Assembly: GCA_028285365.1 (NCBI GenBank)
Contig: JANQPS010001277.1
Span: 1 to 43,632 of the forward strand
Length of the DNA: 43,632 bases
Direction: 5' to 3'
DNA from: Thermoanaerobaculia bacterium
GTDB taxonomy: Bacteria; Acidobacteriota; Thermoanaerobaculia; Multivoradales; Multivoraceae
The translations under genes and the position numbers were made by a program. Under the pieces are notes generated by a model. It saw only the letters and a list, made by a program, of their open reading frames with translations, ran no database searches and was not told where the DNA came from. Of this stretch, positions 5,745 through 25,399 are shown piece by piece (the stretch's first letter is position 1; each line of letters starts with the position of its first letter).

Positions 5745-8231
5745 ATGACGACTTCATTCGAACCCATCGATCCGACGACCTGGACCCGCGTCAAAGAGAT
5801 TTGCGCGGACGCCATGGAGCTCGAGGGCGCCGAGCGGGAGGCGTTCGTCGAGGAACGTTGCACCGACGACCCCAGGATCGAGAGCGAAGTCCGTCGCCTC
5901 CTCGCGGCTCACGAGCGCATCGAGCCGGACTTCCTGGAGCCACCGTCGGGTGGCCCGCTCGCACTTGCGCTGCCTTTCGAGGTCGGGCGCCGGATCGGAC
6001 CCTGGAGGCTCGTAGACGAGCTGGGCACAGGCGGCATGGGAGTCGTCTATCTCGCTGAGCGACTGGATGCGGACTTCGAGCAGCGCTCGGCACTCAAGGT
6101 GATGCGTCTGCCCACGGCGGACGCCGCTCTCACGGGGAGCTTCCATCGCGAGCGTCAGGTCCTCGCCGGGCTGGAGCACCCCAACATCGCCCACCTGCTC
6201 GATGGCGGAAACACGGAAGAAGGCCTCCCCTACTTCGCCATGGAGTTCGTGGAGGGGCTGCCCATCGATCGGTTCTGTGACGAACACGAGCTCTCGACAG
6301 ACGACCGCCTGGCCCTCTTTCTCGAAGTCTGCTCGGCAGTGAGTCACGCCCATCGCAATCTGGTCGTGCACCGCGACCTCAAGCCATCGAACATTCTGGT
6401 GACGTCCAACGGGGCACCCAAACTGCTCGACTTCGGGATCGCCAAGCTCCTGGCGGAGGGCCCTGGTGACGCAGCGGTCACGCAGTTTCAGGCCTTGACA
6501 CCCGACTACGCCAGTCCCGAGCAGCTTCGAGGCGAAGCCATCACGACCGCCAGCGATGTGTACTCACTGGGGGCCCTTCTGTACCGCCTGCTCACTGGCC
6601 AGAAGCCCTTCACCTCTAGCACGAAGACGCTCGCAGAGCTGTCAGAAGAGCGCGGCCAGTCCCCACGATCGCCCAGCGCCGTCGCCAGTGAAGCTGCCGC
6701 CCGCGAGCTACGAGGGGATCTCGACAGCATCGTGATGAAGGCCCTTCGCCCGGAGGCCGACCAGCGTTACGGTTCGGTCGAGGCCCTTGCCGAAGACCTG
6801 TCCAGGTACCGCGACGGCCTGGCAGTCGGAGCCCGGCAGGGTACCTTCTTCTACCTGTTCGGGAAGCTCCTGCGACGTCACAAGGTCCAAGTTGCCGCAG
6901 CAGCCCTGGTGGCTCTTTCTCTCGTCGGCGCCACCGTGGCTTCCACCCGCGCCGCGCAGATCGCGCGAGCCGAGCGAGCAACGGCCCAGACCGAGCGCGC
7001 CAAGGCCGAGCGCATCAGCGCTTTCCTCCAGGGGATGATCTCGTCACCCGATGCGAGCTGGCTCTCCGAAGGCGGCTCCGGACGCGACGTCACCGTGGTC
7101 CAGGTCCTCGAGCAGGCCGAGCAGAGCCACGATGCCGCGACCGAGGCTCAGCCCGCCGAGGAGGCACTGATTCGTCGGACGCTGGGGATCACGTATCGCA
7201 GCCTGGGCCTCTACGACGCCTCAGAGCGTCTCCTGCGTGAGGCGGTCCGCCTCGACGAACAGTGGTCCGGAGCTGAGGGTTTCGATCTAGGGCTCAGTCT
7301 CGCGCACCTGGCGGTGACTCTCTTTCGCAACGGGGACTACGAGGGGGCGACCCGGCTCGGTCGACGAGTGGTCGACATCTTCCGCAGCCAGCCCATCAGG
7401 CCCGGAGCTGACAAACCGGGTATCGAGCTGAGCGGCAACGTCCAGAATCTAGGGCTCTTCTTGCTCTTTCAAGGCCAGCTAGAGGAGGCCGAGGTCTACT
7501 TGGACGAGGCCCTGACTCTCAGCCGCGAGCACTTCGGAGACACCCACCCAATCGTGGCGATCACCTTGACCAGCCTGGGCAACGTCCGCATCTGGCAGGG
7601 GGATCTGGACGGTGCGGAGACGTTCTACCGCAGCGCACTCGACACCTTCTCCGCCCTTCCCAACACCTCCTGGGAGCCGGCGTTGACCTGGGCTGACATC
7701 GGCAGACTCGAAGTCCTTCGCGGCAATCACGACAAGGCGGACGAGTACCTCGGCCAGGCCATGGAGATCGTGACTGGAAAACTCGGTGAAGAGCATCCCC
7801 AGGCCGCCCTCATCCAAATCGTCGTCGCCCGTCTGAGGCATCGCCAGGGTCGCCTGCCGGAGGCGGAACAAGAGGCACGCTCGGCGTTCGAGATCCTAGA
7901 GCACTCGCTGGGGAAGAACCATCCGCACACCGCAACTGCTCAGACGACGCTCGGCTCCATCCTGACGACCGCAGGCAGACCCGCAGAAGCCGAGGACCTG
8001 CTGCGTCGCGCCTTGGAGAAGCACCGCAACGCCCAGGTCGAGCACCGAACAGCCCAGGCGGCCGTTGTGCTCGGCGAGTGCCTCGCTGCCTTAGGACAAC
8101 GAGCAGAAGCCGCTCAGCTGATCGCGGAAGGAGTGGCCGGGTTGGAGGCCACTCTCGGCGCTGAGCATGTCCTGACCCGCGAAGCCAAGGCGCAGCTTCG
8201 GCTCGTCCCGGAAGCCGCCGGCCTCGACTAG
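5745..8231 (+). CDS. Ser/Thr protein kinase with one TM helix and a C-terminal TPR array
   Basis: 828 aa. Hanks motifs: GTGGMGVVYLA, ALKVM (catalytic Lys), HRDLKPSNILV, DFGIAKL, ASPEQ. TM segment VAAAALVALSLVGATVA. The C-terminal half has repeated TPR-like helices (e.g. EEAEVYLDEALTL, DGAETFYRSALDT). Confidence 0.92.
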   Translation: MTTSFEPIDPTTWTRVKEICADAMELEGAEREAFVEERCTDDPRIESEVRRLLAAHERIEPDFLEPPSGGPLALALPFEVGRRIGPWRLVDELGTGGMGVVYLAERLDADFEQRSALKVMRLPTADAALTGSFHRERQVLAGLEHPNIAHLLDGGNTEEGLPYFAMEFVEGLPIDRFCDEHELSTDDRLALFLEVCSAVSHAHRNLVVHRDLKPSNILVTSNGAPKLLDFGIAKLLAEGPGDAAVTQFQALTPDYASPEQLRGEAITTASDVYSLGALLYRLLTGQKPFTSSTKTLAELSEERGQSPRSPSAVASEAAARELRGDLDSIVMKALRPEADQRYGSVEALAEDLSRYRDGLAVGARQGTFFYLFGKLLRRHKVQVAAAALVALSLVGATVASTRAAQIARAERATAQTERAKAERISAFLQGMISSPDASWLSEGGSGRDVTVVQVLEQAEQSHDAATEAQPAEEALIRRTLGITYRSLGLYDASERLLREAVRLDEQWSGAEGFDLGLSLAHLAVTLFRNGDYEGATRLGRRVVDIFRSQPIRPGADKPGIELSGNVQNLGLFLLFQGQLEEAEVYLDEALTLSREHFGDTHPIVAITLTSLGNVRIWQGDLDGAETFYRSALDTFSALPNTSWEPALTWADIGRLEVLRGNHDKADEYLGQAMEIVTGKLGEEHPQAALIQIVVARLRHRQGRLPEAEQEARSAFEILEHSLGKNHPHTATAQTTLGSILTTAGRPAEAEDLLRRALEKHRNAQVEHRTAQAAVVLGECLAALGQRAEAAQLIAEGVAGLEATLGAEHVLTREAKAQLRLVPEAAGLD

Positions 8232-8300
8232 CTCTGCCAATCCGCAAATCACCCACCGCAGCGAAGCCGTTGGCTCCCCGCGGGGCTATACTCGCGACGT

Positions 8301-8882
8301 ATGAGCAGCCCGCCCGTGGCCCCGCCGGAGGACATCACTCGACTCCTGGCCCAGTGGAGCGACGGAGATGCGGAGTCACTCGATCGCGTGCTGGTCCTGG
8401 TCTACAGTGAGCTGCAGCGCATGGCCGCAGCCGCGATGCGCGGCGAGCGCCGAGACCACACGCTCGAGCCCACCGCACTCGTCCACGAGGCGTTCATGCG
8501 GCTGGCCAAGCTGCGCGAGATCCGCTGGGACGATCGGGCTCACTTCTTCGGCACCGCCGCTCGGGTCATGCGCCGTATCCTCGTCGATCACGCGCGCAGG
8601 CACCGCGCCGCAAAGCGCGGCTCTGGCGCCAAGGAACAGCTCGACGACGCCTTGATGCTGACCAACGATCAAGCGGGAGAGATCGAGCGCCTGGACGATG
8701 CCCTCAAGGACCTCGAACGACTCGATCCGCGTCAGAGCCGAGTCGTCGAGCTACGCTACTTCGGGGGGTTCAGCGTCTCCGAGACAGCGGAAGCGCTGGA
8801 CGTCTCGCCGATCACCGTCAAGCGAGACTGGGCCGTCGCAAGGGCCTGGCTCCAGGACTACATGCACCCCAGTGACGATTGA
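8301..8882 (+). CDS. ECF-type RNA polymerase sigma factor, TIGR02999 / ECF43-like (Ser/Thr-kinase-associated group)
   Basis: 193 aa. Family-typical N-terminus ITRLLAQWSDGDAESLDRVLVLVYSELQRMAAAAMRGERRDHTLEPTALVHEAFMRL. Region 4 HTH (VVELRYFGGFSVSETAEALDVSPITVKRDWAVARAWL). Lies 69 nt downstream of the kinase gene. Confidence 0.9.
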   Translation: MSSPPVAPPEDITRLLAQWSDGDAESLDRVLVLVYSELQRMAAAAMRGERRDHTLEPTALVHEAFMRLAKLREIRWDDRAHFFGTAARVMRRILVDHARRHRAAKRGSGAKEQLDDALMLTNDQAGEIERLDDALKDLERLDPRQSRVVELRYFGGFSVSETAEALDVSPITVKRDWAVARAWLQDYMHPSDD

Positions 8883-8968: not shown

Positions 8969-9058
8969 GTAACTTGAAGCCAGTAACTTGAAGCCAGTAA
9001 CTTGAAGCCAGTGACTTGAAGCCAGTGACTTGAAGCCAGTGACTTGAAGCCAGTGACT
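8969..9058. repeat. 14-bp tandem repeat, 6.4 copies (3x GTAACTTGAAGCCA, then 3x GTGACTTGAAGCCA plus a partial unit), with two further degenerate units running into the next CDS start
   Basis: Read directly. Perfect units at 8969-8982, 8983-8996, 8997-9010 (GTAACT type) and 9011-9024, 9025-9038, 9039-9052 (GTGACT type). Degenerate units GTGACTCGACAAGC (9053-9066) and GTGACTAAGGAACA (9067-9080); the latter contains the GTG start of the ankyrin ORF. Confidence 0.97.
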
Positions 9059-9965: not shown

Positions 9966-10259
9966 ATGGCGATGGTCCTGACCCCCTCGGCGGTACTCCG
10001 AGCCATGATCGCTGGATGTTTGCTGGCAGCTCTAGGCCTGAGCTCCATCGCTGCGCTGGGTCATACGCACGACGAAGACTCGCCCGAAGACTGTGGGGCC
10101 TGCCACCTCGTATCCACTGTCACGATCGGCTCGCAGCCTGCCTCGGTCGCCCACGATCCCGTTCCAGAAGGCGCGGCACCCTCTTACGAGTGTGCCCAGG
10201 TCCGCGACGAATACGCGTACATCGCCTCGATTCGCGGACCACCGTCTCTCTCGAGCTGA
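9966..10259 (+). CDS. Small secreted/anchored His/Cys-motif protein (DUF2946-like pattern); paralog of 31674-31982
   Basis: 97 aa. Hydrophobic N-terminus (AMIAGCLLAALGLSSIAALG), then GHTHDEDSPEDCGACHLV and C-proximal IRGPP. The same motif order occurs in the 102-aa ORF at 31674-31982. Confidence 0.65.
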   Translation: MAMVLTPSAVLRAMIAGCLLAALGLSSIAALGHTHDEDSPEDCGACHLVSTVTIGSQPASVAHDPVPEGAAPSYECAQVRDEYAYIASIRGPPSLSS

Positions 10260-10300: not shown

Positions 10301-10506
10301 TTGCGCGCCATTCTCGACGGCGAGAAGCGAGTCCGTGAATCTGGTCCCAATAGGCAGCCACATCGCCGAGCTTTCTAGGCGCGACGTCACGTCTCGACGG
10401 CGAGTCCGCTACGCTGTCATGAGCTGTACGTGACCCTCGTCGCGCTGGATCGTGCATTGAGAGAACCACTCAAACCCCAGATCCTCAACCAAGAGCCCAC
10501 CTTCCC

Positions 10507-12882
10507 ATGATCTGGATTACCGAAGCGCTGCGCGCAACCCTGGACCTGCTATTCGAGGCCGCACCTTACGTTCTCTTCGGCCTCTTGATCGCCGGTCTGA
10601 TCCACGTACTCCTGCCACAAGCCGTCGTGCTGCGCTGGCTCAGTCGTCCTGGTCTGTCTGGTGTGATTCGAGCTGCGGTGATTGGAGTCCCTCTGCCCAT
10701 CTGCAGCTGTGGCGTCGTGCCCATCGCGCTCGAGCTCCGTCGTAAGGGAGCTTCGTCACCGGCAACGCAGTCGTTTCTCATCACGACGCCCGAATCATCG
10801 GTCGACTCGATCGTGCTCACGTGGGGTCTCATGGGCCCGGTGATGGCCGTCGCTCGACCGGTCGCAGCGTTCTTCACGGCAATCGTCGGCGGCGTGCTGT
10901 CGATCGTCGGCGCGCGTTCGGTAAAAGAGCTGACGGAGCTCGAAACCGGTCGAGGTCTGCTCGAAGCCAAAGGTCACGAACATCATCACCATCATCACCA
11001 TCATCACCATCATCATCACGGTCACCATCACCATCATCATGGCCCCGAACACCATGGTCTCGATGAACCCGACGAGCTCGGAGACTCCCAAAGCCTAGAG
11101 GGTGACTCGTCGCCTGAGCCGTCTGAGCTGGAGCGGCGAGAGTCGCAAACCGACTTGCTAGACGACGGCGAATCCGGCAGCTCTGCCAGCTGGAGCATGA
11201 GCTTCAAGAGGGGCTGGCAACGAGTGATGCTGCCGAGCCTGCGTTTCGGCTTCGGCGAAATGCTCGATGACCTCGCCTTCTGGCTCGTCGTCGGAATCGT
11301 GCTGGCGGGAGGCGTGACGGTCCTGCTGCCGAGTGATCTCCTGGGCCTCGGACTCGGAGGCGGCATTCTCCCGGTGATCCTCGCTCTCATCGTCAGCGTG
11401 CCGATCTACATGTGTGCGTCGGCAAGCACGCCCATCGCCGCTGCGCTCATGGCCAAAGGCCTCAGCCCAGGTGCCGCGCTGGTCTTTCTGCTGGCTGGTC
11501 CGGCAACCAACGTCGCGACGATCCTGCTTCTCAACCAGGCTTTCGGCAGGCGGTTCGTCAAGATCTATCTCGCGAGCGTGGTTGCGGGAGCTCTCGCCTC
11601 CGGTCTCACTCTCGACTTCTTGATCAGCGAGCTGCAGATGGACGCGATCATCCCCGGCTCTTCCGAGCCTGGGCTCATCGCCATCGCTTCAGGTGTCGTG
11701 CTGGCCCTGCTGTTGCTGCGCAGCCTCTACCGCGGCGCGTGGAGTCACGGCATCGCCGAGCTACGCTCGTCCTGGGCCCAACTATCGCCCAAGTCAGCTG
11801 TCGGCAGGAGGAGACCATCTCTGGGGGTCATCCTGGCCCTCGTCGTCGTGCTCGGCTACCTCGGCACGGGCATCAGGGTCGTACCCGAGAATTCCATGGG
11901 TTACGGCTTTACCTTCGGTGCGTTGACCAAAGAGGGTGCGCCTCCAGGACTGCACTATCACCCTCCAGCACCGTTCGGCAGCTGGGATCTGCGACGGGTC
12001 GACTACCCTCGCAAGACGGACATCGGGTTCCGTACCGACCTCCGCGTTCTCGCAACGCGCGAAGGCCTCGATCGCACGACGGCGCGAGACTGGCACAGCC
12101 CGCTCGCAGCCATGAACCCGAAGCCGGAACAGGCAACGTTCGTCACGAGTGACAACAACCTCGTCGAACTGGCTTTCAGCGTCCACTACGGACTCTCCAC
12201 GCCGTTCACCTTCCTGTACGAGCTCAGTCACGAGCACGACATCGTCAACCTCTATGCAGAGTCAGTGGCGAGGGAGCTCATCGTCTCGAAGACTCTCGAC
12301 CAGCTCTTGACCTCCCAGCGCTCTCAGCTCGAGGAGAAGATTGCGGCCGAGCTGCAGGTCCACCTCGATCGCAACGAGATCGGAGTCGAGGTGCGCTCCG
12401 TTCACTTTGTCGACGTCCATCCACCGACCGAAGCCGTCGGGGCGTTTCGCGACGTTTCGAGCGCGCTCGAAGAGCGAGCGACCAGAGTCCACCGGGCACA
12501 TCTGCGCGCTGCCAGATCGGTACCGCTCGCACGGGGCGAAGCCACCAAGCTGCTCGCTCAGGCCGAAGCCGAATCCAACGCGCGCAGCCGCGAGGCAGAC
12601 GCTCGCCTCGAGTCGTTCACTCCCATGTCGAAAGCGTTCGCGATGGCGCCTCAGATTCTCGAGAACCTCCTGTCGACAGAGGCTTCGGAGCGCATGCTCT
12701 CCGGAAGACGCAAGATCGTCATCGACAGTTCCAGGGACTTCGGGTCCATCACCTTCTGGGACCCGCAGCTGGTAGCGCCACCAACGGGATCGAGGCGCGG
12801 AACCTTCCTCGACTCGCAGCTCGACTCAGCTCCACCAGCGCGTCGAGACATCACACCACCACCACCCATAGACCACCACTAA
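10507..12882 (+). CDS. Fusion protein: PF03773/SO_0444-like metal permease with a poly-His cytoplasmic loop, joined to a C-terminal HflK-like TM + SPFH/band-7 module
   Basis: 791 aa. Permease half 1 has the GVPLPICSCGVVPIALELRRKG motif. Loop KGHEHHHHHHHHHHHHHGHHHHHHGPEHHG (nt ~10975-11055) plus an acidic stretch. Permease half 2 (PIYMCASASTPIAAALMAKGLSPGAALVFLLAGPATN). New TM helix LGVILALVVVLGYLG (~nt 11821), then an HflK-like core (GLHYHPPAPFGSWDLRRVD...TSDNNLVELAFSVHY...VEVRSVHFVDVHPPTEAVGAFRDV) and a coiled-coil tail (ARGEATKLLAQAEAESNARSREADARL). Confidence 0.85.
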   Translation: MIWITEALRATLDLLFEAAPYVLFGLLIAGLIHVLLPQAVVLRWLSRPGLSGVIRAAVIGVPLPICSCGVVPIALELRRKGASSPATQSFLITTPESSVDSIVLTWGLMGPVMAVARPVAAFFTAIVGGVLSIVGARSVKELTELETGRGLLEAKGHEHHHHHHHHHHHHHGHHHHHHGPEHHGLDEPDELGDSQSLEGDSSPEPSELERRESQTDLLDDGESGSSASWSMSFKRGWQRVMLPSLRFGFGEMLDDLAFWLVVGIVLAGGVTVLLPSDLLGLGLGGGILPVILALIVSVPIYMCASASTPIAAALMAKGLSPGAALVFLLAGPATNVATILLLNQAFGRRFVKIYLASVVAGALASGLTLDFLISELQMDAIIPGSSEPGLIAIASGVVLALLLLRSLYRGAWSHGIAELRSSWAQLSPKSAVGRRRPSLGVILALVVVLGYLGTGIRVVPENSMGYGFTFGALTKEGAPPGLHYHPPAPFGSWDLRRVDYPRKTDIGFRTDLRVLATREGLDRTTARDWHSPLAAMNPKPEQATFVTSDNNLVELAFSVHYGLSTPFTFLYELSHEHDIVNLYAESVARELIVSKTLDQLLTSQRSQLEEKIAAELQVHLDRNEIGVEVRSVHFVDVHPPTEAVGAFRDVSSALEERATRVHRAHLRAARSVPLARGEATKLLAQAEAESNARSREADARLESFTPMSKAFAMAPQILENLLSTEASERMLSGRRKIVIDSSRDFGSITFWDPQLVAPPTGSRRGTFLDSQLDSAPPARRDITPPPPIDHH

Positions 12883-12916
12883 AAGATCGCAACGACCTCG
12901 CCATGAGAATCTCACC

Positions 12917-13801
12917 ATGAAGTCACTCACTCGTCGTATCGCCTACGGCGTCGCAGTCGCCGTGATCCTCCTGGTCCTACCGACCTGCTTCTTCACCGTC
13001 CAAGAGACGGAGATAGGACTGGTCACCCGGTTCGGGCGCCCGGTGCAGGAGGAAGCCAAGCCGGGTCTACACGTCAAGCTTCCCTGGCCGATCGAAAAGG
13101 TTCTGTCGGTGGACCAACGCCTCCTGGTCTTCGACAACGAGCCGACCGAGATGCTGACGCGAGACAAGCGCAACGTCGTCGTCGACTCGTTTCTGCTCTG
13201 GCGGATCTCGGATCCGCTGAGGTACGTTCAGACGGTCGGACACCGGTTGGAAGCGGAAGCTCGACTGCTGGATCTCGCAACCTCCGAACTTGGCGCCGCA
13301 ATCGGGTCGGTGCCGATGGAGAGTCTCATCAACCCGGATCCCGCCAAGGTCGAGCTGCGCCAGGTCGGGTCGGCGGCGGCGGCAGCCATTCGCACGACGG
13401 CCGTAGAGTCCTACGGCATCGATGTCGTGGATCTGAGGATCAACGGGTTCAACATGCCGCGCCAGAATCGCGCCAGCGTCATTGAACGCATGAGAGCGGA
13501 GCGCGAGCGGATCGCCGCTGGATTTCGCAGCGAAGGCGAAGAGCAAGCACTCGAAATCGAAGCCGAAGCGACCAAGGCGAAAGAAATCCTCCTCGCCGAA
13601 GCACGAGCCCAAGCAGAGATCATCCGAGGGACGGGTGAAGCCGAGGCCCTGCAGACCCTCGCAGAGGCGTATCGGCAGAACCCCGCTTTCTACCGGCTTC
13701 TGCGGTCACTCGAGAGTCTGGAGGAGATCGTCGACGATGACACGACGGTCTTCCTCGACGCCAACTCCGAGCTGTTGGAGGCGCTCCGTGCCCTCAACTG
13801 A
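12917..13801 (+). CDS. HflC-like SPFH/band-7 protein
   Basis: 294 aa. N-terminal TM (VAVAVILLVLPTCFF). FTVQETEIGLVTRFGRPV..PGLHVKLPWPIEKVLSVDQR; DVVDLRINGFNMPRQN; coiled-coil RAERERIAAGFRSEGEEQALEIEAEA. Confidence 0.85.
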   Translation: MKSLTRRIAYGVAVAVILLVLPTCFFTVQETEIGLVTRFGRPVQEEAKPGLHVKLPWPIEKVLSVDQRLLVFDNEPTEMLTRDKRNVVVDSFLLWRISDPLRYVQTVGHRLEAEARLLDLATSELGAAIGSVPMESLINPDPAKVELRQVGSAAAAAIRTTAVESYGIDVVDLRINGFNMPRQNRASVIERMRAERERIAAGFRSEGEEQALEIEAEATKAKEILLAEARAQAEIIRGTGEAEALQTLAEAYRQNPAFYRLLRSLESLEEIVDDDTTVFLDANSELLEALRALN

Positions 13802-14741
13802 GCAGACTCCCCGCTCGGTCGTGGCGATCTGGGCGATCCGTGATCGCCTCGAGGCACAGTGGCGCCTGGCGCTCGTTGTCCTCCTGATCGGGATACTGGC
13901 GCTCTGGGCGACCACCGGTATCTTCGTGATCGAAAGCGGAGAAACCGGAGTGCGGCAGCGATTCGGACGACTGGTCTCGGATGCCGATTCCGCGGGTCTC
14001 AACGCGAAGCTGCCGTCACCGCTCGAGAGAGTGACCGTGCTCGACACCAGCGAGGTGCAGACACTGGCACTCGGAGGCCCCATCGACCGTTTTCTGGATC
14101 TGGTCACCGGCGACGAGAACCTGATCCGAGTGCACGTCACACTCCAGTACCGGATCTCGAGTCCAGCGGACTTTCTGTTCGCGACAGAGGACGTGCCGTC
14201 GGTCATCAGCCAGACGGTGCGCGGCGAGCTGATCGAAGCGGTCGCGGCGTTGCCAGTGGACGAAGTCCTGACCTCGGCCAAAGCCATCGTTCAACAGCAG
14301 GTCCGTCACCGCGCACAGAAGACTCTCACGTCGATCGGATCAGGCGTCAGCCTCATCACCGTGAACCTTCAGGACGTCAGGCCACCACGCGAGGTCGCCG
14401 ACGCGTTTCGCCAGGTCGTCGATGCGCGATCGTTCTCTCAGCGCATCGTGAGCCAGGCCAACAAGCGTCGCGACGAGTCGCTCAGCCTGGCAAGAGCCGA
14501 GTCGAATCGTCTGCTCAGGGTTGCCGAAGCCGGCAGCTCGTCTCGGACTGAAGTGGCTGGCGGCGACGCTCGGCGGTTCCTCGACCTGCTCCAGCAATAC
14601 GAGGCCAGTCCCCGCCAGACACGCGAGGATCTGGTCCTCGATGCGCTCTCACGCAGCCTACCGGGGGCTCGTCTCGTCGTTCTCGCTCCGGGCAACGCAC
14701 CCGTCAACCTCAATCTCGAGGCTGATCCGACAACACCGTAG
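13788..14741 (+). CDS. Second HflK-like SPFH/band-7 protein
   Basis: The ORF is open from 13635, but its first ~50 codons overlap the HflC-like gene and are Arg/Ser-rich. Plausible starts are GTG 13788 (14-nt overlap with the upstream stop) or GTG 13821. TM LALVVLLIGILALWATTGIF. SPFH core IESGETGVRQRFGRLV..GLNAKLPSPLERV..GDENLIRVHVTLQYRI..ITVNLQDVRPPREVADAFRQV. Confidence 0.8.
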   Translation: MPSTEQTPRSVVAIWAIRDRLEAQWRLALVVLLIGILALWATTGIFVIESGETGVRQRFGRLVSDADSAGLNAKLPSPLERVTVLDTSEVQTLALGGPIDRFLDLVTGDENLIRVHVTLQYRISSPADFLFATEDVPSVISQTVRGELIEAVAALPVDEVLTSAKAIVQQQVRHRAQKTLTSIGSGVSLITVNLQDVRPPREVADAFRQVVDARSFSQRIVSQANKRRDESLSLARAESNRLLRVAEAGSSSRTEVAGGDARRFLDLLQQYEASPRQTREDLVLDALSRSLPGARLVVLAPGNAPVNLNLEADPTTP

Positions 14742-14792: not shown

Positions 14793-15665
14793 TCAGGCGT
14801 CACCCTCGGCGGCTTCGACTTCGATGGTGCGCGTCACGCTGTTGAAAGGCCCTTCGACCACATTGCCGGCAGAGTCGATGAGCTCCAGCTGAATGGTGAC
14901 GGTGCCGGACGGCAAGCCTTCGATGACGTAGGGCTGCCACTTGCTGAAGACGAACTCGTTGCCCTCGATGGTTGCCCGCACGCGGTTGCCGGTCTGCGAG
15001 AGCTCCGTGTTGACGAGAAAGAAGTCGAGCATGATCCGCTCTGCGCCATCACCCGAATAGGAGCCTTTGGGGCGGTTGTAGAAGAGGTGCTGACCCGCCT
15101 TGTCGAAGCTCGAGCTCGCTCCGTCGACGAGCAGCTCCTCGAGGACAAAAACACCTGGCGTCTTGACGCTCTCGTGGTACGAGCGACCCAGGAAAGCCAG
15201 CAGCACGTGGGCACCAGCCTCGAGCTCGGAGGTGGCTTCCGGCGTGTAGTGAGCGCTGTAGGGGCCATTGTCGATGATGAGGTGAATGTGCTGACCGTCA
15301 CCCGAGTTGGCGATGCCTTTGGTCGCCGCGTCGGTCGTCTGCTCACCCATTCCGAATCCACCGACCTCGAACTGCAAGTTGGTGGAGCCGGCAGGGATCG
15401 ACAAATCGGCGGGGCTCGACAGCGCGATCGTCGCTTCGGGAAACTCGGGAGACTCACCGAGCGGAGTGATGGTCAGGCCACCGGCCTCCCAAACTGTCTG
15501 CTCTTCGGCTGGCGCCGGCTCGGACGCTGCAGGCGTATCTGCGGTCTCCGGCTCGCCGGCTGACCCGCCGCAAGCAACGAGAGTGGTGAGGAGCACAAGC
15601 CCCACGAACGTCATCAGTCGGATGGAAACGAGTGTGGTGGTACTGAGCAGACGCTGGGTAGGCAT
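14793..15665 (-). CDS. Secreted lipoprotein of unknown function with a G-x-H-I-H-L-I-I-D motif (DUF4399-like?)
   Basis: Trimmed to ATG 15665 (MPTQRLLSTTTLVSIRLMTFVGLVLLTTLVAC; lipobox LVAC). Low-complexity linker (PETADTPAASEPAPAEE), then two beta-rich halves. GDGQHIHLIIDNGPY resembles the GHHHLxID signature I associate with DUF4399 (from memory, unverified). Confidence 0.6.
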   Translation of the reverse strand: MPTQRLLSTTTLVSIRLMTFVGLVLLTTLVACGGSAGEPETADTPAASEPAPAEEQTVWEAGGLTITPLGESPEFPEATIALSSPADLSIPAGSTNLQFEVGGFGMGEQTTDAATKGIANSGDGQHIHLIIDNGPYSAHYTPEATSELEAGAHVLLAFLGRSYHESVKTPGVFVLEELLVDGASSSFDKAGQHLFYNRPKGSYSGDGAERIMLDFFLVNTELSQTGNRVRATIEGNEFVFSKWQPYVIEGLPSGTVTIQLELIDSAGNVVEGPFNSVTRTIEVEAAEGDA

Positions 15666-15940
15666 GATCGATTCTCCGTGGCGGATTGGGGGTATGGGCG
15701 TCACGGGCATGACGGCAACCGGGGACGAACTCGCCGCTCTCTCGCCGTCGTGATCTCCGTCGTCGCGTGGATGGTCGCTAGTTGGCGCGGGGCAGTCTAT
15801 CGGACCCCCGGAACGCGAGAAACGCTCACGTCGTCAGGGGATGCAAGGTCAGGTCTTGGGGATTCGGGGACCGAGAGTCCCGGACGATCGCGGCGGCGTC
15901 CGGAGCTACACCGAGACCCGTGCCCAATACTGTGCCCAAA

Positions 15941-16005
15941 CTTTTCTGTGTCTAGACTTTTCTGTGCCTAGACATTTCTGTGCCTAGACCTGTTCTGGGC
16001 CTAGA
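15941..16005. repeat. 16-bp tandem repeat x4 (CTTTTCTGTGYCTAGA), containing palindromic GTCTAGAC / GCCTAGAC cores
   Basis: Units 15941-15956 CTTTTCTGTGTCTAGA, 15957-15972 CTTTTCTGTGCCTAGA, 15973-15988 CATTTCTGTGCCTAGA, and degenerate 15989-16005 CCTGTTCTGGGCCTAGA. The last unit contains the stop codon (16001-16003) of the minus-strand His-rich protein gene. Confidence 0.95.
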
Positions 16006-16666
16006 ACTGGAGGGTGCCGGAACTGCCCTTGAGCCTGATCTCATCCTGACGTTCGGCGGACAGGACGATGACGTCGACTTGTTCGATCCCGGTCAGCAAG
16101 CTCGACCAGTTGAAGGTTGCCGTGGTTCCGGAAATCGAGCGACCACACTTGACCGACCACTGCACGTGGACATCGCTGTGACCATGGCCTTCGTCGTGGT
16201 CATGGCCAGACTTCTCACTCTCGTCGTGGTGGCCATGATCGTCGTCATGATCGTCATGGTGATCGTCGCCATGGTCATCGTGATGGTCGTCATGACTCTC
16301 CGTGTCGCGCGCTCCCAGGCTCTCGAAACGGCAATCGAGAGACGAGTCGAAGACCAGGGCATTGCCAAGCCCGGTCTCCAGACGACGCATGCCTTCGGCC
16401 TGCTGCTTGCGCTCCGCTTCGTTTTTCGGCTCGTGCTCGAATCCATAGACCGACTCGCCAGGAACCAGGAGCTCGACCACCAGCTCTTGCTCGGTCTCCA
16501 TCGCGATGTTGAGCTCGGCCTTGCCGTGCTCGTGCGCCGCATGCTGGGCCAACGCTGGCGTCATTGCCGCGAGCCCGAAGAGCAGGCCAGCCAGGATTCC
16601 TCTCGCCACAGACCGGAACTCCGAAGTCAGGCCTCCGTTGCACCTCACGTCTCGAGTCTCTCTCAT
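16001..16666 (-). CDS. His-rich periplasmic metal-binding protein, ZrgA / PA4063-like (DUF2796-type)
   Basis: 221 aa. Signal peptide (ILAGLLFGLAAMTPALAQH). Conserved-looking HAAHEHGKAELNIA start. Central run ESHDDHHDDHGDDHHDDHDDDHGHHDESEKSGHDHDEGHGHSDVH (nt 16166-16300). Sits in a cluster with a MacB-like ABC pair and DUF3299 genes, as in the Zur-regulated zrg/PA4063-66 operons. Confidence 0.7.
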   Translation of the reverse strand: MRETRDVRCNGGLTSEFRSVARGILAGLLFGLAAMTPALAQHAAHEHGKAELNIAMETEQELVVELLVPGESVYGFEHEPKNEAERKQQAEGMRRLETGLGNALVFDSSLDCRFESLGARDTESHDDHHDDHGDDHHDDHDDDHGHHDESEKSGHDHDEGHGHSDVHVQWSVKCGRSISGTTATFNWSSLLTGIEQVDVIVLSAERQDEIRLKGSSGTLQF

Positions 16667-16776: not shown

Positions 16777-17829
16777 TCACCAGCGGTAGATCTCGGCCGA
16801 ATCACCCGCGAGCTCGAACCCCACCGCCCCGTAGGGGCTTTCCGTTACACCAACAGACAGTTTCCCGGTGACCCACAATGGATCCCAGCCCCACGGGTCG
16901 ATGGGCTTGGCGCCCTTCTTCAGGCGCACGTGAACCATCTGGTTGGGCGGGGGCGTCGGTTCGTGAATGCAGGCGCCTAGCCAAGGCGCAAGCAGAAACT
17001 CCATCCCGTCTTCGTCGAGGGGAACGACGTAGCCGGGGATCTTGACCGTCTCGTCGACCACCTCGGTCAACTCGGGGCCCGTCTTACCTGTCGCCACGTC
17101 GAGCTGGGCGAGGATGTCCCAACCCACCTTCTTCACCCCGTCCTCGGACTCCTCGATCGCCGGCGCCATGGCCATGGCTGATGACGGCAACGAGCGTGGT
17201 CCGACGTAGAAGTAGAGAACCGCAGTCAGGCATGAGACAACGAGGAGCGAGTCCGCGATTCGACGCACCGTAGCTCGGGGCGGAGCGGGCTCAGCTAGCT
17301 GGCAGGTATCCATCGATACTCTCCTCCAGTGTCCAGTGATCATGAGAAGACCACCTACGACCGGAATGACTTCACTCGTCGCGTAGAGGCTCTCGAGAAT
17401 GCGACCCGTGACCAGTAGGAACAACCCACCGACAAGGATCAATTCCGACCACTCTACCCTCGAATCGGTCGCCGTGGCATGAGAGCCGCCACGTCGAACG
17501 CTGAGCACGACCAGGAGTGCGGAGCCAGAGATAGCCAACCAACGCCAGCGCGGATCGAACCAGGAGGTGCCACCCGACAATGCCATCAGTGCCGGAAGAG
17601 CGAGCAGCACGGCACAGTGTAGTGTGCACACCGCCGCCGCGAGGACGCCCAGCCGGTCAATCCATCGGGGTCCCAGAACCGGCGAGATCGTGTGAAAATC
17701 GAACTGCTGCCGTTCCGCCCCCAAGGGAGTTCGTCGAGAAGGTCCAGCATCTGCTTCGACCAGACGAGCTACCGCCGATCCGTCCGACTGGCTATCCAAG
17801 TCGTGGCCGGCAAAAAGGACCCTTGACAT
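16777..17829 (-). CDS. Fusion: MerC-like 4-TM domain + extra TM + periplasmic DUF3299 domain
   Basis: 350 aa. MerC-like first helix IDRLGVLAAAVCTLHCAVLLALPALMAL and later ITGHWRR. C-terminal DUF3299 signature VKIPGYVVPLDEDGMEFLLAPWLGACIHEPTPPPNQMVHV...SPYGAVGFEL. Confidence 0.75.
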   Translation of the reverse strand: MSRVLFAGHDLDSQSDGSAVARLVEADAGPSRRTPLGAERQQFDFHTISPVLGPRWIDRLGVLAAAVCTLHCAVLLALPALMALSGGTSWFDPRWRWLAISGSALLVVLSVRRGGSHATATDSRVEWSELILVGGLFLLVTGRILESLYATSEVIPVVGGLLMITGHWRRVSMDTCQLAEPAPPRATVRRIADSLLVVSCLTAVLYFYVGPRSLPSSAMAMAPAIEESEDGVKKVGWDILAQLDVATGKTGPELTEVVDETVKIPGYVVPLDEDGMEFLLAPWLGACIHEPTPPPNQMVHVRLKKGAKPIDPWGWDPLWVTGKLSVGVTESPYGAVGFELAGDSAEIYRW

Positions 17830-17833
17830 GCCC

Positions 17834-17870
17834 TTAATGATAATGAATTCTCAATTACAAGTCAATTACT
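17834..17870. promoter_or_regulatory. AT-rich Fur/Zur-box-like operator in an 87-bp divergent promoter region
   Basis: TTAATGATAATGAATTCTCAATTACAAGTCAATTACT is the only strongly AT-rich island I saw in the window. TAATGATAAT (17835-17844) matches positions 3-12 of the classical Fur box GATAATGATAATCATTATC (about 12/19 overall). Direct repeat TCAATTAC at 17851-17858 and 17862-17869. Located between divergent genes 16777-17829 (-) and 17917-18630 (+). Confidence 0.5.
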
Positions 17871-17916: not shown

Positions 17917-18630
17917 ATGACGGCCGATAACGGAGACACAGCGGTCATCGAGGTCCGCGACCTCAAGTTCCACTACGGCCGCAAAGCAGGTGCGTCGTTG
18001 GTCCTCGACATCGAAGAGTTCCTCCTGAAGAAGGGCGAACGCATGTTCGTCTACGGTCCCAGCGGTTGCGGCAAGACCACGCTGCTCGGCGTGGTGGCTG
18101 GCGTACTCGAGCCGGTCGACGGCATCGTCCGAATCCTGGGTCAGGACCTCACCGAGCTGTCGGCCGCTCGCAGAGACACCTTCCGCGCCGACCACATCGG
18201 CTACATCTTCCAGATGTTCAACCTACTGCCCTACCTGAGCGTGCTCGACAACATCCTGCTGCCGGTTGCCATGAGCAAGGCCCGACGATCTCGCGTCGGT
18301 TCGCAAGCAAAAGCTGCCGCAACCACTCTGGCCGAGCACCTCGGTCTAGAGTCCCGTCTCGATGCCCTCGGCGGTGAGCTCAGCGTGGGTCAACAACAGC
18401 GAGTGGCCGCCGCTCGGGCTCTCATCGGTGGCCCCGAGCTGATCATTGCCGACGAGCCCACGTCGGCACTCGACACCGACCGGAGAACAGCATTCCTGGA
18501 GCTCCTCTTCGAAGAGTGCAACGCGGCAGGAGCGAGCCTCTTGTTCGTGAGCCATGACCGCACGCTCGAGTCGATGTTCGATCGTGTGCTGGAGCTCCCT
18601 GACATCAACCGAGTGAAGACCTTGGCATGA
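17917..18630 (+). CDS. ABC transporter ATP-binding protein, MacB/LolD-like (ZrgB / PA4064-like)
   Basis: 237 aa. Walker A GPSGCGKTT, Q-loop IFQMFNLLP, signature LSVGQQQRVAAARAL, Walker B LIIADEPTSALD, H-loop VSHD. Confidence 0.92.
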   Translation: MTADNGDTAVIEVRDLKFHYGRKAGASLVLDIEEFLLKKGERMFVYGPSGCGKTTLLGVVAGVLEPVDGIVRILGQDLTELSAARRDTFRADHIGYIFQMFNLLPYLSVLDNILLPVAMSKARRSRVGSQAKAAATTLAEHLGLESRLDALGGELSVGQQQRVAAARALIGGPELIIADEPTSALDTDRRTAFLELLFEECNAAGASLLFVSHDRTLESMFDRVLELPDINRVKTLA

Positions 18631-19910
18631 TCATCAGGCTCTCTCTTTCGTCTCTCAACAGCCGCCGGCTCGCGACAGCACTGACAGTGCTCTCGCTGGC
18701 GCTCTCCGTGGCTCTACTTCTCGGCGTCGAGCAGGTCCGCACCGGAGTCCGCGAGAGCTTCTCGAACACGATCAGCGGAACCGACCTCATCGTCGGCACT
18801 CGAGTGGGCCAACTGCAGCTGATCCTGTTCACCGTCTTTGGCATCGGCTCGACGCCCGCCAATATCTCGTACGACACTCTCGAGAAGTATCGCGAGCACC
18901 CGGCCGTCGAGTGGGCGGTACCGTTTTCGCTCGGTGACAGCCACCGAGGTTTCCGAGTCGTCGGCACGACGGAGGAGTACTTCGAGAAGTACCGCTACCG
19001 CCGGGATCGCGGCATCAGGCTTGCCGAAGGCACGGTCCCGAAACGCATACTCGATGCCACGGTCGGTCATCAAGTGGCGCGCGAGCTCGACTATCAGGTT
19101 GGTCAGAAGATCATCATCACCCACGGCATCTCCGGAGCGCCGGGGATCTCTGACCACGACGATTCGCCCTTTACGATCGTCGGCATCCTCGACCGGACTG
19201 CGACCCCCATCGACCGGACGGTGTACATCACCCTGGAGGGTATGGAGGCCATCCACGAGGACGGCCCCCCCACTCTGTCCACCGGCCCGCCGCCTACTGC
19301 AACGGCAGTGCAGGAACCGGCAAACCCGTCGGTCGAGGACAGGGCGGGTCCACCTGCCGAGTCCATCACCGCCTTTTTTGTCGGCGTCAAGTCTCGAATC
19401 GACACCCTCCGTCTGCAACGAGAGATCAACACCGACGAAAGCGAGCCTCTACAGGCGATCATTCCGGGGGTTGCGCTCGCGGAGCTCTGGCGTGGCATCG
19501 ACATGGCGGACACCGCCCTCAAAGCAGTCGTTGCTCTCGTCGTCCTCGTGGGCCTGCTGGGGATGCTGATCTCTCTGCTTTCGACGCTGAACGAGCGTCG
19601 GCGCGAAATGGCAATCCTTCGCGCACTCGGCGCACGACCGAAGATCATCGCCATTCTGCTGGTGATCGAGGCCGGATTGCTGAGTGTCGCCGGAGTCCTT
19701 CTGGGACTCCTCCTGAACTACGGACTGCTGGCCGGCGCGCAGCCGATCGTCGAGAGAGCGTTCGGACTGGCCCTACCAATCCGAGCGCCCAACCAGTTCG
19801 AGCTGATGGCGCTGCTCTTCGTCATCGTCGCCGGCGTCCTGGCCGGCCTGGTGCCCGCCTTTCGCGCCTACCGCAATGCGCTGTCCGACGGTCTGGCCAT
19901 GAAGGTCTGA
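18627..19910 (+). CDS. FtsX/MacB-type ABC permease with a periplasmic domain (ZrgC / PA4065-like)
   Basis: 427 aa. 4-nt ATGA overlap with the ATPase gene. N-terminal TM (LATALTVLSLALSVALLLGV), large periplasmic insert, and a C-terminal FtsX 3-TM bundle (RREMAILRALGARPKIIAILLVIEAGLL). Confidence 0.88.
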   Translation: MIIRLSLSSLNSRRLATALTVLSLALSVALLLGVEQVRTGVRESFSNTISGTDLIVGTRVGQLQLILFTVFGIGSTPANISYDTLEKYREHPAVEWAVPFSLGDSHRGFRVVGTTEEYFEKYRYRRDRGIRLAEGTVPKRILDATVGHQVARELDYQVGQKIIITHGISGAPGISDHDDSPFTIVGILDRTATPIDRTVYITLEGMEAIHEDGPPTLSTGPPPTATAVQEPANPSVEDRAGPPAESITAFFVGVKSRIDTLRLQREINTDESEPLQAIIPGVALAELWRGIDMADTALKAVVALVVLVGLLGMLISLLSTLNERRREMAILRALGARPKIIAILLVIEAGLLSVAGVLLGLLLNYGLLAGAQPIVERAFGLALPIRAPNQFELMALLFVIVAGVLAGLVPAFRAYRNALSDGLAMKV

Positions 19911-19931: not shown

Positions 19932-20465
19932 CTACCAGTCTTCGTCTTCAGCCAGTCCGTCGGCGAACTTGACGCTCGCCTGGGCCTTCATCGAAAACCC
20001 GACCGCGCCCCAAGGACTGTCGTTGTCGGTAACGCTCAGAACCCCGACCGCCCATATGGGCCCTTGCGTCCACAGGTCGAACTCGACTTCGACCCCTTCC
20101 TCCATCTCTACCAGGATCATCTGGTTCGGCGCGGGAGGCGGCAGGTGGACACAAGCTCCGAAGTTGGGAACGAGTAAGAACGTAGACACCTTGCTCAGCG
20201 AGTCCTCGAACGGCACGATGAAACCTGCAATCCTCACGACAGGGCCCAGCAGAGTGTCCAGAGTCGGCGACACCGCACCGGTGGAGAGATTGAGATCCGC
20301 CAGATCGCGCCAGTCGGCCCGCGGCAGATTGCCGGGCCACTCGGATCCGCCCGAGCAAGACATCATGAGCGCAGCGATGCACAAGACGAGCGCTGCGCAG
20401 CGTCGTCGCGGCCTGAGGCCGCAAAACGCTCGCGAAGAGCTGTCTTTAGATCTGAGGAACGTCAT
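19932..20465 (-). CDS. DUF3299 lipoprotein (ZrgD / PA4066-like)
   Basis: Trimmed from the 364-aa ORF to ATG 20465 (MTFLRSK...CAALVLCIAALMMSCSGG; lipobox MMSC), giving 177 aa. DUF3299 signature VRIAGFIVPFED..FLLVPNFGACVHLPPPAPNQMILV..SPWGAVGFSM. The longer ORF would overlap the Fur-family gene on the other strand. Confidence 0.85.
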   Translation of the reverse strand: MTFLRSKDSSSRAFCGLRPRRRCAALVLCIAALMMSCSGGSEWPGNLPRADWRDLADLNLSTGAVSPTLDTLLGPVVRIAGFIVPFEDSLSKVSTFLLVPNFGACVHLPPPAPNQMILVEMEEGVEVEFDLWTQGPIWAVGVLSVTDNDSPWGAVGFSMKAQASVKFADGLAEDEDW

Positions 20466-20693
20466 CTCACAGGCACCACACATGGTCAGGCATGTAGGAA
20501 TCTGTCCGGACCACGAACAGAAACCACTCGAACTCAGCTCCACTGTTGAGGATACACCCAATCGTTTCGGTGCGAGAGCTCGAGAGTGCGACGCACCAAC
20601 GCGTCCTTCGAGGGTAACCATCAACGGGCGTGACAACCTTCCCGAAGAGTGAGCAACCGAACCCGAGCCGCAGAAAGACAAGGCTAGAAATCG

Positions 20694-21107
20694 ATGGCGA
20701 TCCGAAAAACAAGGCAGCGCGCTGCGATCCGCGAAGCTCTCGAGCGAGCGCACCGGCCCATGAGTCCACAGGAGCTTCTCGAGGCTGCCCGGAACGACGC
20801 GCCGTCGCTGAGTATTGCCACCGTCTACAGAGCGCTGCGTGACCTCGAAGACTCCGGATTCCTGCGTTCGGTTTCCATTCCGCACCAGTCGCCACTCTAC
20901 GAGCGGGCGGGAACCGGACATCACCACCACTTCTGCTGCCAGCACTGCGATCGGGTCTTTGACATCCACGCTTGTCCGGCAGGCCTCGAAGACCTGGCTC
21001 CGGCGGGCTTCGTCGTAGAGAGTCACGACATCGTGCTCTACGGATGTTGTGCCACGTGCAGGCTCGACGAGACGGCCGAAGACTCAGCGGAGCCTTCTCC
21101 GTCGTAG
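20694..21107 (+). CDS. Fur-family metalloregulator (Zur-like candidate) #1
   Basis: 137 aa. Winged-helix N-domain (RKTRQRAAIREALERAHRPMSPQELL..SIATVYRALRDLEDSGFL), metal sites GHHHHFCCQHCDRVF and CCATC. Confidence 0.88.
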   Translation: MAIRKTRQRAAIREALERAHRPMSPQELLEAARNDAPSLSIATVYRALRDLEDSGFLRSVSIPHQSPLYERAGTGHHHHFCCQHCDRVFDIHACPAGLEDLAPAGFVVESHDIVLYGCCATCRLDETAEDSAEPSPS

Positions 21108-24284: not shown

Positions 24285-25399
24285 TCCTCTCCGCAGCACG
24301 AGAGGTCGTCCAGGTACATGCCCCACAGGCGATACCTCTCGAGCCCTTCCGCCGGCAGTCCCAGCGACGTCGCGATCGCCTTGGCGACCACTGCAAAGCG
24401 CTGTCGGTACTTGAAGATGAAACAGAAGATGAGGCTGTCGTGTCGGACAGCCGCACCGCAGAGGAAGATCCCCGGGGTGATCGTCGACTCGTCGTGCTCG
24501 TTGAGCAGCGGAAAGCCGTCGTCGCGCGCCTCGAAGAGATTGGCAATGAGCGGGTGACTTCCCTTGAAACCTCCAGCGAGCAGTGGGGGCACAGGTGTCT
24601 CAAAAGCGCGGCCGTCCAAGGTGACGACCTCGTACCCGGACTGCGAGCGACTGACCGCCGCGATGGGTGTGTCCGGGAACAGCCTCACGTGCTTGGCGAA
24701 CGCCTTCTCACGAGTGCGTTCGACCGAGTAGGTCGAGAGCGCCACGCTCGGATCGGAGCTTTCAGACTCCCAGGGATGATCTCGGTCGAAGAGTCGGACG
24801 CGTTTGCCGCGCTTGGCGAGGTGATAGGCCACGTCGATCCCGCTCTCGTAGCCGCCGATCACGATGAAGTCGTCACCATCCAGCTGGGCGTAGCTGGGAA
24901 TCGTGGCCGTGTGCTGACACAGCTTGCTGCCCACGAACCCATCGAGATTCGGGTACTGGAAATCGCCTCCCGCCCAGATGACGTGCCGGGCTCGCACCGT
25001 GCCGACAAGCGTTTCGATCGCAAACTCGTCGCCTTCACGGGCGATACGAGTCACGTCCATGTTCTCGCGAATCGGCACCTCGAAGTGCTCTGCGATCGCC
25101 TTGAGGAAAACCGCGTACTCGAGGCCCGTCGGATGCTCGACCTCCAGAGTGAACGCTGGTGAGGTTCCTATGGCGACAGAGTTCAGGTCGAGCATGCCAA
25201 CCGAGTTCGTAGGGAACGAGGGCGTGATGAAGCGCGTCTCGGCGGGCCACAGGGCGAAAGACGTGCCGACCGTGTGACGCTCGAGCACCACCATGTTCTC
25301 GATGCCCGCGTGGCCCAGAGCGATTGCAACGCCCACGCCCGCCGCACCGGCACCCACCACGACCACGTCGTAGAGGTGGTTCTGAGTCGACGTGCTCAT
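24272..25399 (-). CDS. FAD/NAD(P)-dependent oxidoreductase (Pyr_redox_3 / CzcO-TrkA-like flavoprotein) with a Cys-rich C-terminal tail
   Basis: 375 aa. [19 protein letters not shown] (FAD GxGxxG). Second dinucleotide fold [27 protein letters not shown]-terminus ...[18 protein letters not shown] overlap with the upstream COG0523 gene at 25396-25399. Confidence 0.82.

Follow-up and report, generated by a model that had tools for sequence, protein, structure and literature searches.

Which membrane proteins are served by the SPFH assemblies of bacteria? Beyond HflK/C with FtsH and the NfeD partners, the clients of these assemblies are largely unknown, and mutants usually show faint phenotypes. 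A covalent fusion names an SPFH client directly, and one such fusion is encoded in a 43,632-nucleotide stretch of DNA from a Thermoanaerobaculia bacterium (GenBank assembly GCA_028285365.1, contig JANQPS010001277.1, positions 1 to 43,632; the whole stretch is referred to here as the window). The gene in question, Kf (10507..12882, + strand), is one uninterrupted open reading frame (ORF) of 791 aa in which an SO_0444-type metal permease is joined to an HflK-like SPFH subunit. It is followed on the same strand by an HflC-like gene and a second, free HflK-like gene (K2). This module of fusion, C and K is widespread, apparently undescribed and partly mis-annotated.

The permease part of Kf occupies aa 1-406 (10507..11724, + strand, as are all features of the trio given below) and is built of two homologous halves and an extra C-terminal helix, as judged from the NF033936 profile, the AlphaFold2 (AF2) model and tblastn self-matches, in which the internal repeat is visible. 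With 157.3 bits (cutoff 32.3) it matches PF03773 over aa 6-368; its match to NF033936 (the 'SO_0444 family Cu/Zn efflux transporter') spans aa 12-406 and, at 365.7 bits, exceeds the cutoff of 300. The motif LPICSCGVVP begins at aa 63 (10693..10722), with C66 and C68 invariant in 115 aligned fusions, and its counterpart in the second half is C303-ASAST-P309; CSC is the hallmark of the SO_0444-type permease family (10.1101/2022.07.06.499078). A variable, disordered loop (aa 137-248) carries a histidine tract at aa 159-178 (10981..11040; predicted local distance difference test, pLDDT, below 50) encoded by a tandem CAT/CAC repeat. Here 13 His (aa 159-171) are followed by one Gly and then 6 His (aa 173-178), and an acidic stretch comes after the tract. 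The loop is His-rich beyond the window as well, with at least 5 His in 88 of 115 relatives. An earlier note on this DNA, made from the letters alone, had described the motif, the H13-G-H6 tract and the acidic stretch, and all are present as stated.

Past the permease, a basic linker at aa 408-435 (11728..11811) continues the last permease helix as an amphipathic helix, predicted to be cytoplasmic from its Lys+Arg counts; the AF2 model has a helix at 390-426. The transmembrane (TM) helix of the HflK-like part follows at aa 436-459 (11812..11883), recognised by hydropathy, by an AF2 helix at 436-453 and by its alignment with the E. coli HflK TM region, 74-126; LGVILALVVVLGYLG, within this helix, begins at aa 439. 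An SPFH domain, a 73-residue coiled-coil helix and C-terminal strands make up aa 460-751 (11884..12759), putatively on the periplasmic side, and were identified with PF01145, TIGR01933 and Foldseek. The earlier note had claimed that a single 791-aa ORF joins a permease to an HflK-like unit, with the SPFH part at residues ~440-700. The claim holds, with one frame throughout, PF03773 at aa 6-368 and PF01145 at aa 458-665. Against solved structures the fused SPFH part is nearer HflK (1.7e-19) than HflC (2.9e-4) by sequence, and by fold its top Foldseek matches are HflK chains (7vhq_E and 9cz2_XA). Its match to TIGR01933 (hflK) is partial, covering aa 541-747 and model positions 49-254, and at 124.6 bits lies below the 159.4 cutoff. 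W751 is kept in 21/21 diverse fused K sequences. Compared with E. coli HflK 127-145, the SPFH domain bears an insertion of ~36 aa (aa 487-541, 11965..12129) with W529-H530-S531...A535-M536. W529 and H530 are invariant in the 115 closest clusters, and more distant fused clades are without the insertion; the WHSxxAAM insertion as a universal, possibly metal-binding trait of fused K was rejected, being confined to the sub-clade of the window. A further candidate marker, the FtsH contact Arg191 of HflK (PMC12048511), was dropped, as the aligned Arg589 is a general SPFH residue and the numbering is uncertain.

Might the 791-aa ORF be a chimera, or two separate genes that a frameshift has run together? 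The possibility is practically negligible. PF03773 and PF01145 occur together in every one of the 120 best homologue clusters (clustered at 90% identity; 41-55% identity to the query; mostly 700-850 aa), and 115 aligned clusters run unbroken through the linker, where G410 and G415 never vary. A search of a 50%-identity library of 1.84 billion representatives gave 1,491 matches at E <= 1e-30, and in more than 100 of the best 150 of these the match crosses the junction in a protein of 650-940 aa. In a survey of 80 loci, with one genome per species, a single uninterrupted fused ORF was found in 54, and in 51 an HflC-like and then an HflK-like gene come after it on its own strand. The fused loci that do not have both partners lie at a contig edge or, in one case (L046), have a truncated SPFH part, and 0/25 unfused permease homologues have an SPFH neighbour. 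Some database entries of ~540-560 aa do start past the His tract, e.g. P0001 (M241), P0097 and P0117, and locus L004 is broken inside the permease. These breaks, however, sit in the CAT/CAC repeat and not at the junction (~11728-11886), and the second permease half is still joined to SPFH. The homologue clusters, the loci, the linker alignment and the 50%-identity search thus reject a frameshift at the junction, which in related genomes (54 loci of many phyla, 115 aligned clusters) is free of any stop. The PF03773-HflK fusion is confirmed as genuine, with the same ORF across hundreds of independent assemblies. Stand-alone fused-K relatives were considered as evidence of fission and rejected; the two short representatives are contig-edge fragments.

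Only the CAT/CAC codon repeat that encodes the His tract (10981-11055) is prone to error, and a recurrent gene-calling or assembly break there masks the N-terminal permease half in several database entries. The 551-aa database call of the window's own protein starts at M241, just past the tract. Two loci (L042:9890-11833 and L046:9902-11782) encode the permease with a truncated SPFH part, no coiled coil and no C or K partners, and in another (L051:9578-11815) the permease is joined to an ABC ATPase domain in one ORF.

The survey that the earlier note had proposed for Acidobacteriota, of permease-SPFH fusions and of the K-C-K gene order, extends well beyond that phylum. Carriers include Thermoanaerobaculia, Holophagales and Bryobacterales (the latter two other Acidobacteriota), Myxococcota, 'Deltaproteobacteria', Alpha- and Gammaproteobacteria, Gemmatimonadota, Latescibacterota, Spirochaetia, Binatia, Rokuibacteriota and others, more than 10 phyla in all. 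Every genome locus surveyed with the PF03773 fusion is from a metagenome-assembled genome (MAG), and none was found in the plasmid collection. The literature library that was searched gave no paper on a PF03773-HflK or a CDF-HflK fusion (CDF, cation diffusion facilitator; see below). The earlier statement that no example is described is nevertheless true only in part, as the proteins are numerous in databases, named 'SO_0444 family...' or 'YraQ/HflC', and an SPFH trio bound by Zur has been published in P. aeruginosa.

The two genes downstream were also called correctly in the earlier note. The HflC-like gene (12917..13801, 294 aa, an N-terminal TM helix and then SPFH) starts 34 nt after the fusion stop, passes the TIGR01932 equivalog cutoff (202.8 bits against 134.4) and matches HflC in the PDB at 1e-39; in all complete loci it comes next after the fusion. 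K2 (13788..14741, 317 aa) is a free HflK-like protein, at 150.2 bits 9 below the 159.4 cutoff of TIGR01933, and matches HflK in the PDB at 1.8e-34 as against 4e-6 for HflC. For K2 the best start is the GTG at 13788, six nucleotides past a GGAGG (13777-13781); read from there, K2 shares its first 14 nt with the end of hflC, whose stop codon is at 13799-13801. Overlaps of 4-14 nt between hflC and K2 also occur in relatives (L081, L082, L084 and L085), which suggests translational coupling of the trio genes. By hydropathy, the HflC-like protein and K2 each have a short basic N-terminus and then one TM helix. Both K-type proteins have the architecture of HflK (an N-in TM helix, SPFH, a long coiled coil and C-terminal strands) and are nearer HflK than HflC. 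The trio is thus a set of three SPFH genes, not a two-gene hflK-hflC unit, and has no hfq or hflX nearby.

In a neighbour-joining tree (60 bootstraps), the Kf, K2 and C sequences form three groups, and since each is divided into the same three sub-groups, the three genes are shown to co-evolve and travel together. E. coli HflC falls outside the C group of the trio, and E. coli HflK lies among the K2 sequences.

A second metal transporter family has been joined to HflK in a similar manner. It was located via plasmid matches annotated 'hflK'. On the Aquibium oceanicum plasmid NZ_CP018172.1, the first 'hflK' (WP_072608301.1) encodes an SPFH/HflK unit to which a CDF membrane domain (PF01545, 89 bits) is joined at the N-terminus. 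The locus (L089:6239-9884) continues with an HflC-like gene, an HflK-like gene, a large PpiC-type peptidyl-prolyl isomerase (PPIase) and a heavy-metal P-type ATPase, with Nramp upstream. PF01545 and PF01145 occur together in all 120 best relatives of the CDF-HflK protein. Among these are proteins of the cultured Rhizobium sp. AN80A and Kouleothrix aurantiaca, and wherever the source gives a name, that name is HflK. The order CDF-K, C, K, PPIase recurs in Rhizobium and Chloroflexi (L094, L096 and L097). In the tree, the Aquibium C nests in the trio C group (60/60 bootstraps) and its second K goes with one K2 sub-group; the CDF-fused K lies outside the Kf group, so two unrelated metal transporter families have been fused independently onto a related C-K pair. 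As the same solution is found with two unrelated families, a related HflC/HflK pair and many phyla, the evidence argues that an SPFH ring can be devoted to one given transporter.

Plasmids also carry hflK-hflC pairs beside cation/proton antiporters (L091:4809-8178, L092:4791-8798 and L093:4929-9710) and in operons with nhaA; in Vibrio sp. dhg there is a 4-nt overlap between hflC and nhaA. Arrangements of this kind suggest that accessory HflK/C pairs are dedicated to ion transporters more generally.

On which side of the membrane would these parts lie? The AF2 model of the fusion has a pLDDT of 81 and a predicted TM-score (pTM) of 0.64. In it, each half of the permease consists of a long helix, a pair of short helices around the Cys motif (49-59/67-79 around C66-S-C68, and 287-300/304-316 around C303), a broken helix and a final helix; the broken helices carry TTPESS and GPATN. 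Past both halves, the extra helix (390-426) runs into the amphipathic segment and is followed by the HflK TM helix (436-453). Averaged over the 115 sequences, 7.5 Lys+Arg are found in the loop that leads to the HflK helix, and the loop preceding that one is acidic. By the positive-inside rule, this basic loop would place the SPFH part of the fusion on the periplasmic side, and the SPFH parts of all three proteins are predicted to face the periplasm, as in canonical HflK. The His loop (aa 148-225 disordered in the model) had been taken as cytoplasmic in the earlier note. On the published 4+4(+1) helix count for the family it would instead be periplasmic, on the same side as SPFH. On a model with two re-entrant hairpins it would be cytoplasmic, and this gives the better charge fit (15.4 Lys+Arg inside vs 3.7 outside). 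A permease-only model gave no significant fold match in the PDB; the top matches were INDY (E 0.25, probability 0.87, TM 0.37), Pho90, ArsB and VcINDY, no more than a weak hint of a hairpin or elevator-type fold.

By its gene content and its relatives, the window reads as an island of the zinc-starvation type. Downstream of the trio and on the opposite strand lie ZrgA (16001-16666, PF10986, 121 bits) and a MerC-like membrane domain fused to the ZrgB-like domain DUF3299 (16777-17829, PF11736). These are followed by an ABC ATPase with an FtsX permease (17917-19910, + strand; PF00005, PF12704/PF02687), and a second DUF3299 protein (19932-21026, - strand) flanks the ABC/FtsX pair. The set looks like a Zrg-type zinc uptake system. 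Two COG0523/CobW GTPases (25396-26937 and 33801-34895, both - strand; PF02492/PF07683), a TonB-dependent receptor (28907-31480, - strand; PF00593/PF07715), FecCD and a periplasmic binding protein are also present.

Relatives show a similar company. ZnuA, ZnuB, ZIP or COG0523 was found within 10 kb of 28/51 trio loci as compared with 4/29 other loci, and ZnuA alone near 14/51 and 0/29, respectively. The commonest Pfam families in the 145 immediate neighbours of the 51 trio loci were Peripla_BP_6 (13), ZnuA (11) and ABC-3 (6), with ABC_tran and TonB receptors also among them. In L081, the genes run on one strand in the order ABC-FtsX-DUF3299-fusion-C-K2-small-FUR-ZnuA-ZnuC-ZnuB. In L085, a small DUF2946-like gene, the fusion, C and K2 are followed by ZnuA, ZnuC and ZnuB, with a Fur-box-like site upstream, and in L084 a TonB receptor is immediately upstream of the trio. 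Boxes of the form TGTTATnnnATAACA precede the trio in L029, L006 and L049. Within the window, an AT-rich sequence resembling a Fur-family box, TTAATGATAATGAATTCTCAATTA, was read directly in the divergent Zrg-like promoter (17834..17857), and TGATAATGA is common to this sequence and to the box-like site ahead of the L085 operon. The earlier description of a Zur-like island is therefore upheld as regards the zinc-limitation-type genes around the trio; upstream of the window's own operon no Zur-type box was recognised.

In one large sub-clade (22/51 trio loci, e.g. L037:12693-14416 and L016:14524-16193), K2 is followed after ~500 bp, on the same strand, by a Peripla_BP_6 gene and the gene of a conserved membrane protein of 163 aa that matches no Pfam family, often with a ZIP transporter next. 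Upstream of the window's trio is a small secreted His/Cys protein, HTHDEDSPEDCGACH (9966..10259, + strand), which has no Pfam match and is not conserved in the 80 loci. It is possibly DUF2946-like: it weakly resembles (E 1e-4) the small gene ahead of the fusion in L085, which itself matches DUF2946 weakly. Between this gene and the fusion, TCTCGACGGCGAG occurs twice (10311-10326 and ~10392-10404, ~80 bp apart), the first copy inside the palindrome TTCTCGACGGCGAGAA. It could be the site of a regulator; as a Zur box the region was rejected, as it holds no Fur-type box.

How does the trio compare with systems already described? It shares with the HflK/HflC-FtsH complex of E. coli (PDB 7VHP, 7WI3 and 9CZ2) type II K/C SPFH subunits with one TM helix, a long coiled coil and C-terminal strands. 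It differs in having three genes, one K with a nine-helix N-terminal permease, and zinc-related neighbours. Unlike the hflKC of E. coli and Tistrella, it has no hfq-hflX synteny, and both of its K-types are under the HflK equivalog cutoff. SO_0444 of Shewanella oneidensis (NF033936; TC 2.A.119, ArsP family), annotated as Cu/Zn efflux from fitness and complementation data, has the same CSC, two homologous halves and extra C-terminal helix. It is, however, a stand-alone, ZntR-linked protein needed under excess Zn or Cu (ZnSO4 or CuCl2 stress), whereas the permease of the window is HflK-fused and lies among uptake genes. The CDF-HflK trios, a large family, have the same layout, in which an HflK-like subunit bears an N-terminal metal transporter domain and an HflC-like and an HflK-like gene come next, but with PF01545, a trailing PpiC-type PPIase and cultured members. 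In M. tuberculosis, the scaffold PacL1, encoded beside the metal transporter CtpC, is needed for stability and clustering of the transporter (PMC9374683); PacL1 is a small DUF1490 protein and not SPFH, faces the cytoplasm, acts in zinc-excess efflux and forms foci independently of flotillin. Stomatin bound to AQP1 (PDB 9ZD2) is likewise an SPFH oligomer on a membrane transport protein, though eukaryotic stomatin is non-covalent, homomeric and on the cytoplasmic face.

The closest published parallel is in P. aeruginosa, where three HflK/HflC-family genes, PA2439-PA2438-PA2437 (PaFlo5-7), lie in the locus of hmtA (PA2435), are 9-14-fold up on zinc depletion and raised in the zinc-depleted proteome, with Zur binding the PA2439 promoter (PMC4542158; PMC11761036; 10.1101/2021.05.28.446167; PMC13086221). 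Deletion of PA2437-2439 gave faint phenotypes only, in media that were not zinc-limited. These genes share with the trio the three consecutive HflK/HflC-family members and a metal transporter at the locus. They differ, according to the descriptions in the papers and not to a comparison of sequences, in that the P. aeruginosa transporter is a separate P1B-ATPase, HmtA, and not a fused PF03773 permease. The K-C-K-X-ATPase layout of P. aeruginosa is nearer to the CDF-type locus of Aquibium than to the PF03773 trio. Searches with Pseudomonadales MAG HflC-like and CDF-HflK proteins gave only closer relatives among the matches listed.

Taken together, we propose that the three genes would form one inner-membrane assembly, a periplasmic SPFH ring or dome of an HflC-like and two HflK-like kinds of subunit, ring formation being inferred from homology to HflK/C. 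In Kf, the cytoplasmic N-terminus of the HflK-like unit would lead, by way of a basic linker of ~30 residues, to the permease with its CSC motif and His loop, so that the fusion would keep the permease no more than a few nanometres from the wall of the ring; for this reason, the transporter may be regarded as a built-in client of the assembly. The suggestion of the earlier note that a transporter is the client of an SPFH assembly fits all of the findings, and it is strengthened by the independent CDF-HflK family. K2, which is always retained, probably dilutes or spaces the bulky fused subunits among the K positions of the ring. Most likely the module serves the homeostasis of zinc, or of divalent metals, and would be expressed together with Znu, Zrg or ZIP uptake under zinc scarcity; zinc would be the metal transported, and Zur the regulator of the trio. 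The ring could act on the permease by confining metal, by stabilising or gating the transporter, or by presenting it to FtsH. We consider a periplasm-facing HflK/C-type ring with a covalently tethered metal permease in zinc homeostasis about as likely to be right as to be wrong, and a number of points weigh against it. Ring assembly is, for every member, argued from homology, and FtsH may be part of the complex. SO_0444, the sole characterised relative of the permease, is a Cu/Zn efflux protein and CDF proteins are exporters, an odd choice beside uptake genes, which raises the question of why an efflux-only type of transporter should be found in zinc-starvation operons. In 17/51 trio loci there are neither zinc markers nor the pair of Peripla_BP_6 and 163-aa protein. 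No Zur-type box was recognised upstream of the window's operon, whether it starts at 10507 or 9966, and scans for sigma-70 promoters and terminators gave nothing above the shuffled expectation. A single Kf clade was supported in 17/60 bootstraps, which is weak.

FtsH is kept as a possible partner since the HflC-like protein passes the HflC cutoff, K2 is 9 bits short of that for HflK, and E. coli HflK is found among K2. On this account, the HflC-like protein and K2 are FtsH-associated HflK/C, or a paralogue of it, with the canonical function kept, and Kf tethers the permease in the chamber for quick removal or quality control, for instance on the return of zinc. We think this rather unlikely. 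In its favour, the cage-forming elements are all present according to AF2 and Foldseek, HflK/C is reported to enhance the degradation by FtsH of some membrane proteins that enter the chamber (PMC12048511), the P. aeruginosa literature takes PA2437-2439 as FtsH modulators, and the PpiD/SurA-like PPIase of the CDF-type module hints at quality control of membrane proteins. The earlier note had stressed that no protease partner is nearby. Indeed, FtsH, NfeD, other protease domains, hflX and hfq were all missing from the large and scanned ORFs of the window, and neither FtsH nor NfeD is among the families matched by at least two of the 145 neighbours, in which there is no ftsH/hflX/hfq synteny either. 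This absence is weak evidence, because canonical hflKC of E. coli lies within hfq-hflX-hflK-hflC with ftsH elsewhere. Also against FtsH, trio-bearing Proteobacteria would be expected to retain a separate canonical hflKC, as P. aeruginosa does, and it seems a waste to bind a protein that scarcity induces to a protease chamber by a permanent covalent tether. Alternatively, the permease may be a Cu/Zn(/Cd) exporter like SO_0444 which SPFH merely stabilises or clusters in an efflux platform, the uptake genes marking a general metal-homeostasis island and not zinc starvation. The NF033936 score and the CSC motif, the need for SO_0444 under metal stress, the known exporters of the second fused family, CusB-type genes near 8/51 loci and OEP near 5/51, the heavy-metal P-type ATPase adjoining the Aquibium trio and the precedent of PacL1-CtpC (PMC9374683) would all suit such a platform. 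However, no MerR/ZntR-type regulator was seen beside the trio, nor any MerR-type gene among the scanned ORFs of the window. Moreover, a Fur-family regulator and uptake components (ZnuABC, ZIP, Zrg-like genes, TonB receptors) are the top functional neighbours, in some cases seemingly within one operon, and the P. aeruginosa analogue is induced by zinc depletion; detoxification is, in our judgement, decidedly improbable.

As both fused families are known only as exporters, release or capture of metal in a closed chamber was also entertained. Here two exporter-type families would sit on a closed SPFH dome, independent of FtsH, and zinc would be discharged or taken up in a sealed periplasmic nano-compartment. 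Scarce metal could then be handed to periplasmic, exported or binding proteins with no leak through porins, possibly helped by the PpiD-like chaperone of the CDF-type module, and the ring might use three-subunit repeats instead of K/C pairs. We regard this as quite unlikely.

The fusion offers a hypothesis for the unexplained Zur-regulated hflK/hflC paralogues beside hmtA in P. aeruginosa. It also draws attention to hundreds of proteins whose present annotation goes no further than 'SO_0444 efflux transporter' or 'HflK, FtsH modulator'. The presence of the CDF-type module in cultured Aquibium, Rhizobium and Kouleothrix makes the system tractable for structural work and genetics.

Other features of the window lie outside the trio. 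A lipoprotein-like gene of 305 aa (14793-15710, - strand) has no Pfam match, and between the start of this gene and the end of ZrgA there is a 16-nt tandem repeat (15930-16005; CTGTGCCTAGACTTTT, 4.7 copies). A 14-nt tandem repeat (8972-9058; ACTTGAAGCCAGTG, 6.2 copies, 98% matches) separates an extracytoplasmic function (ECF) sigma factor gene from an ankyrin-repeat gene. A Ser/Thr kinase with tetratricopeptide repeats lies at most ~4 kb from the trio in the window (5745-8882), where it adjoins a PF07638 ECF sigma factor, and in two distant relatives (L081:17687-20515 and L082:17739-20030); this proximity may be coincidental in these phyla. An 871-aa ORF (21345-23960, - strand) combines a major facilitator superfamily transporter domain with a spermidine-synthase-like domain. 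A very large RHS/YD-repeat protein (2-5470; at least 1822 aa), in which Ig-like and CarboxypepD_reg domains are also present, extends beyond the left end of the window.

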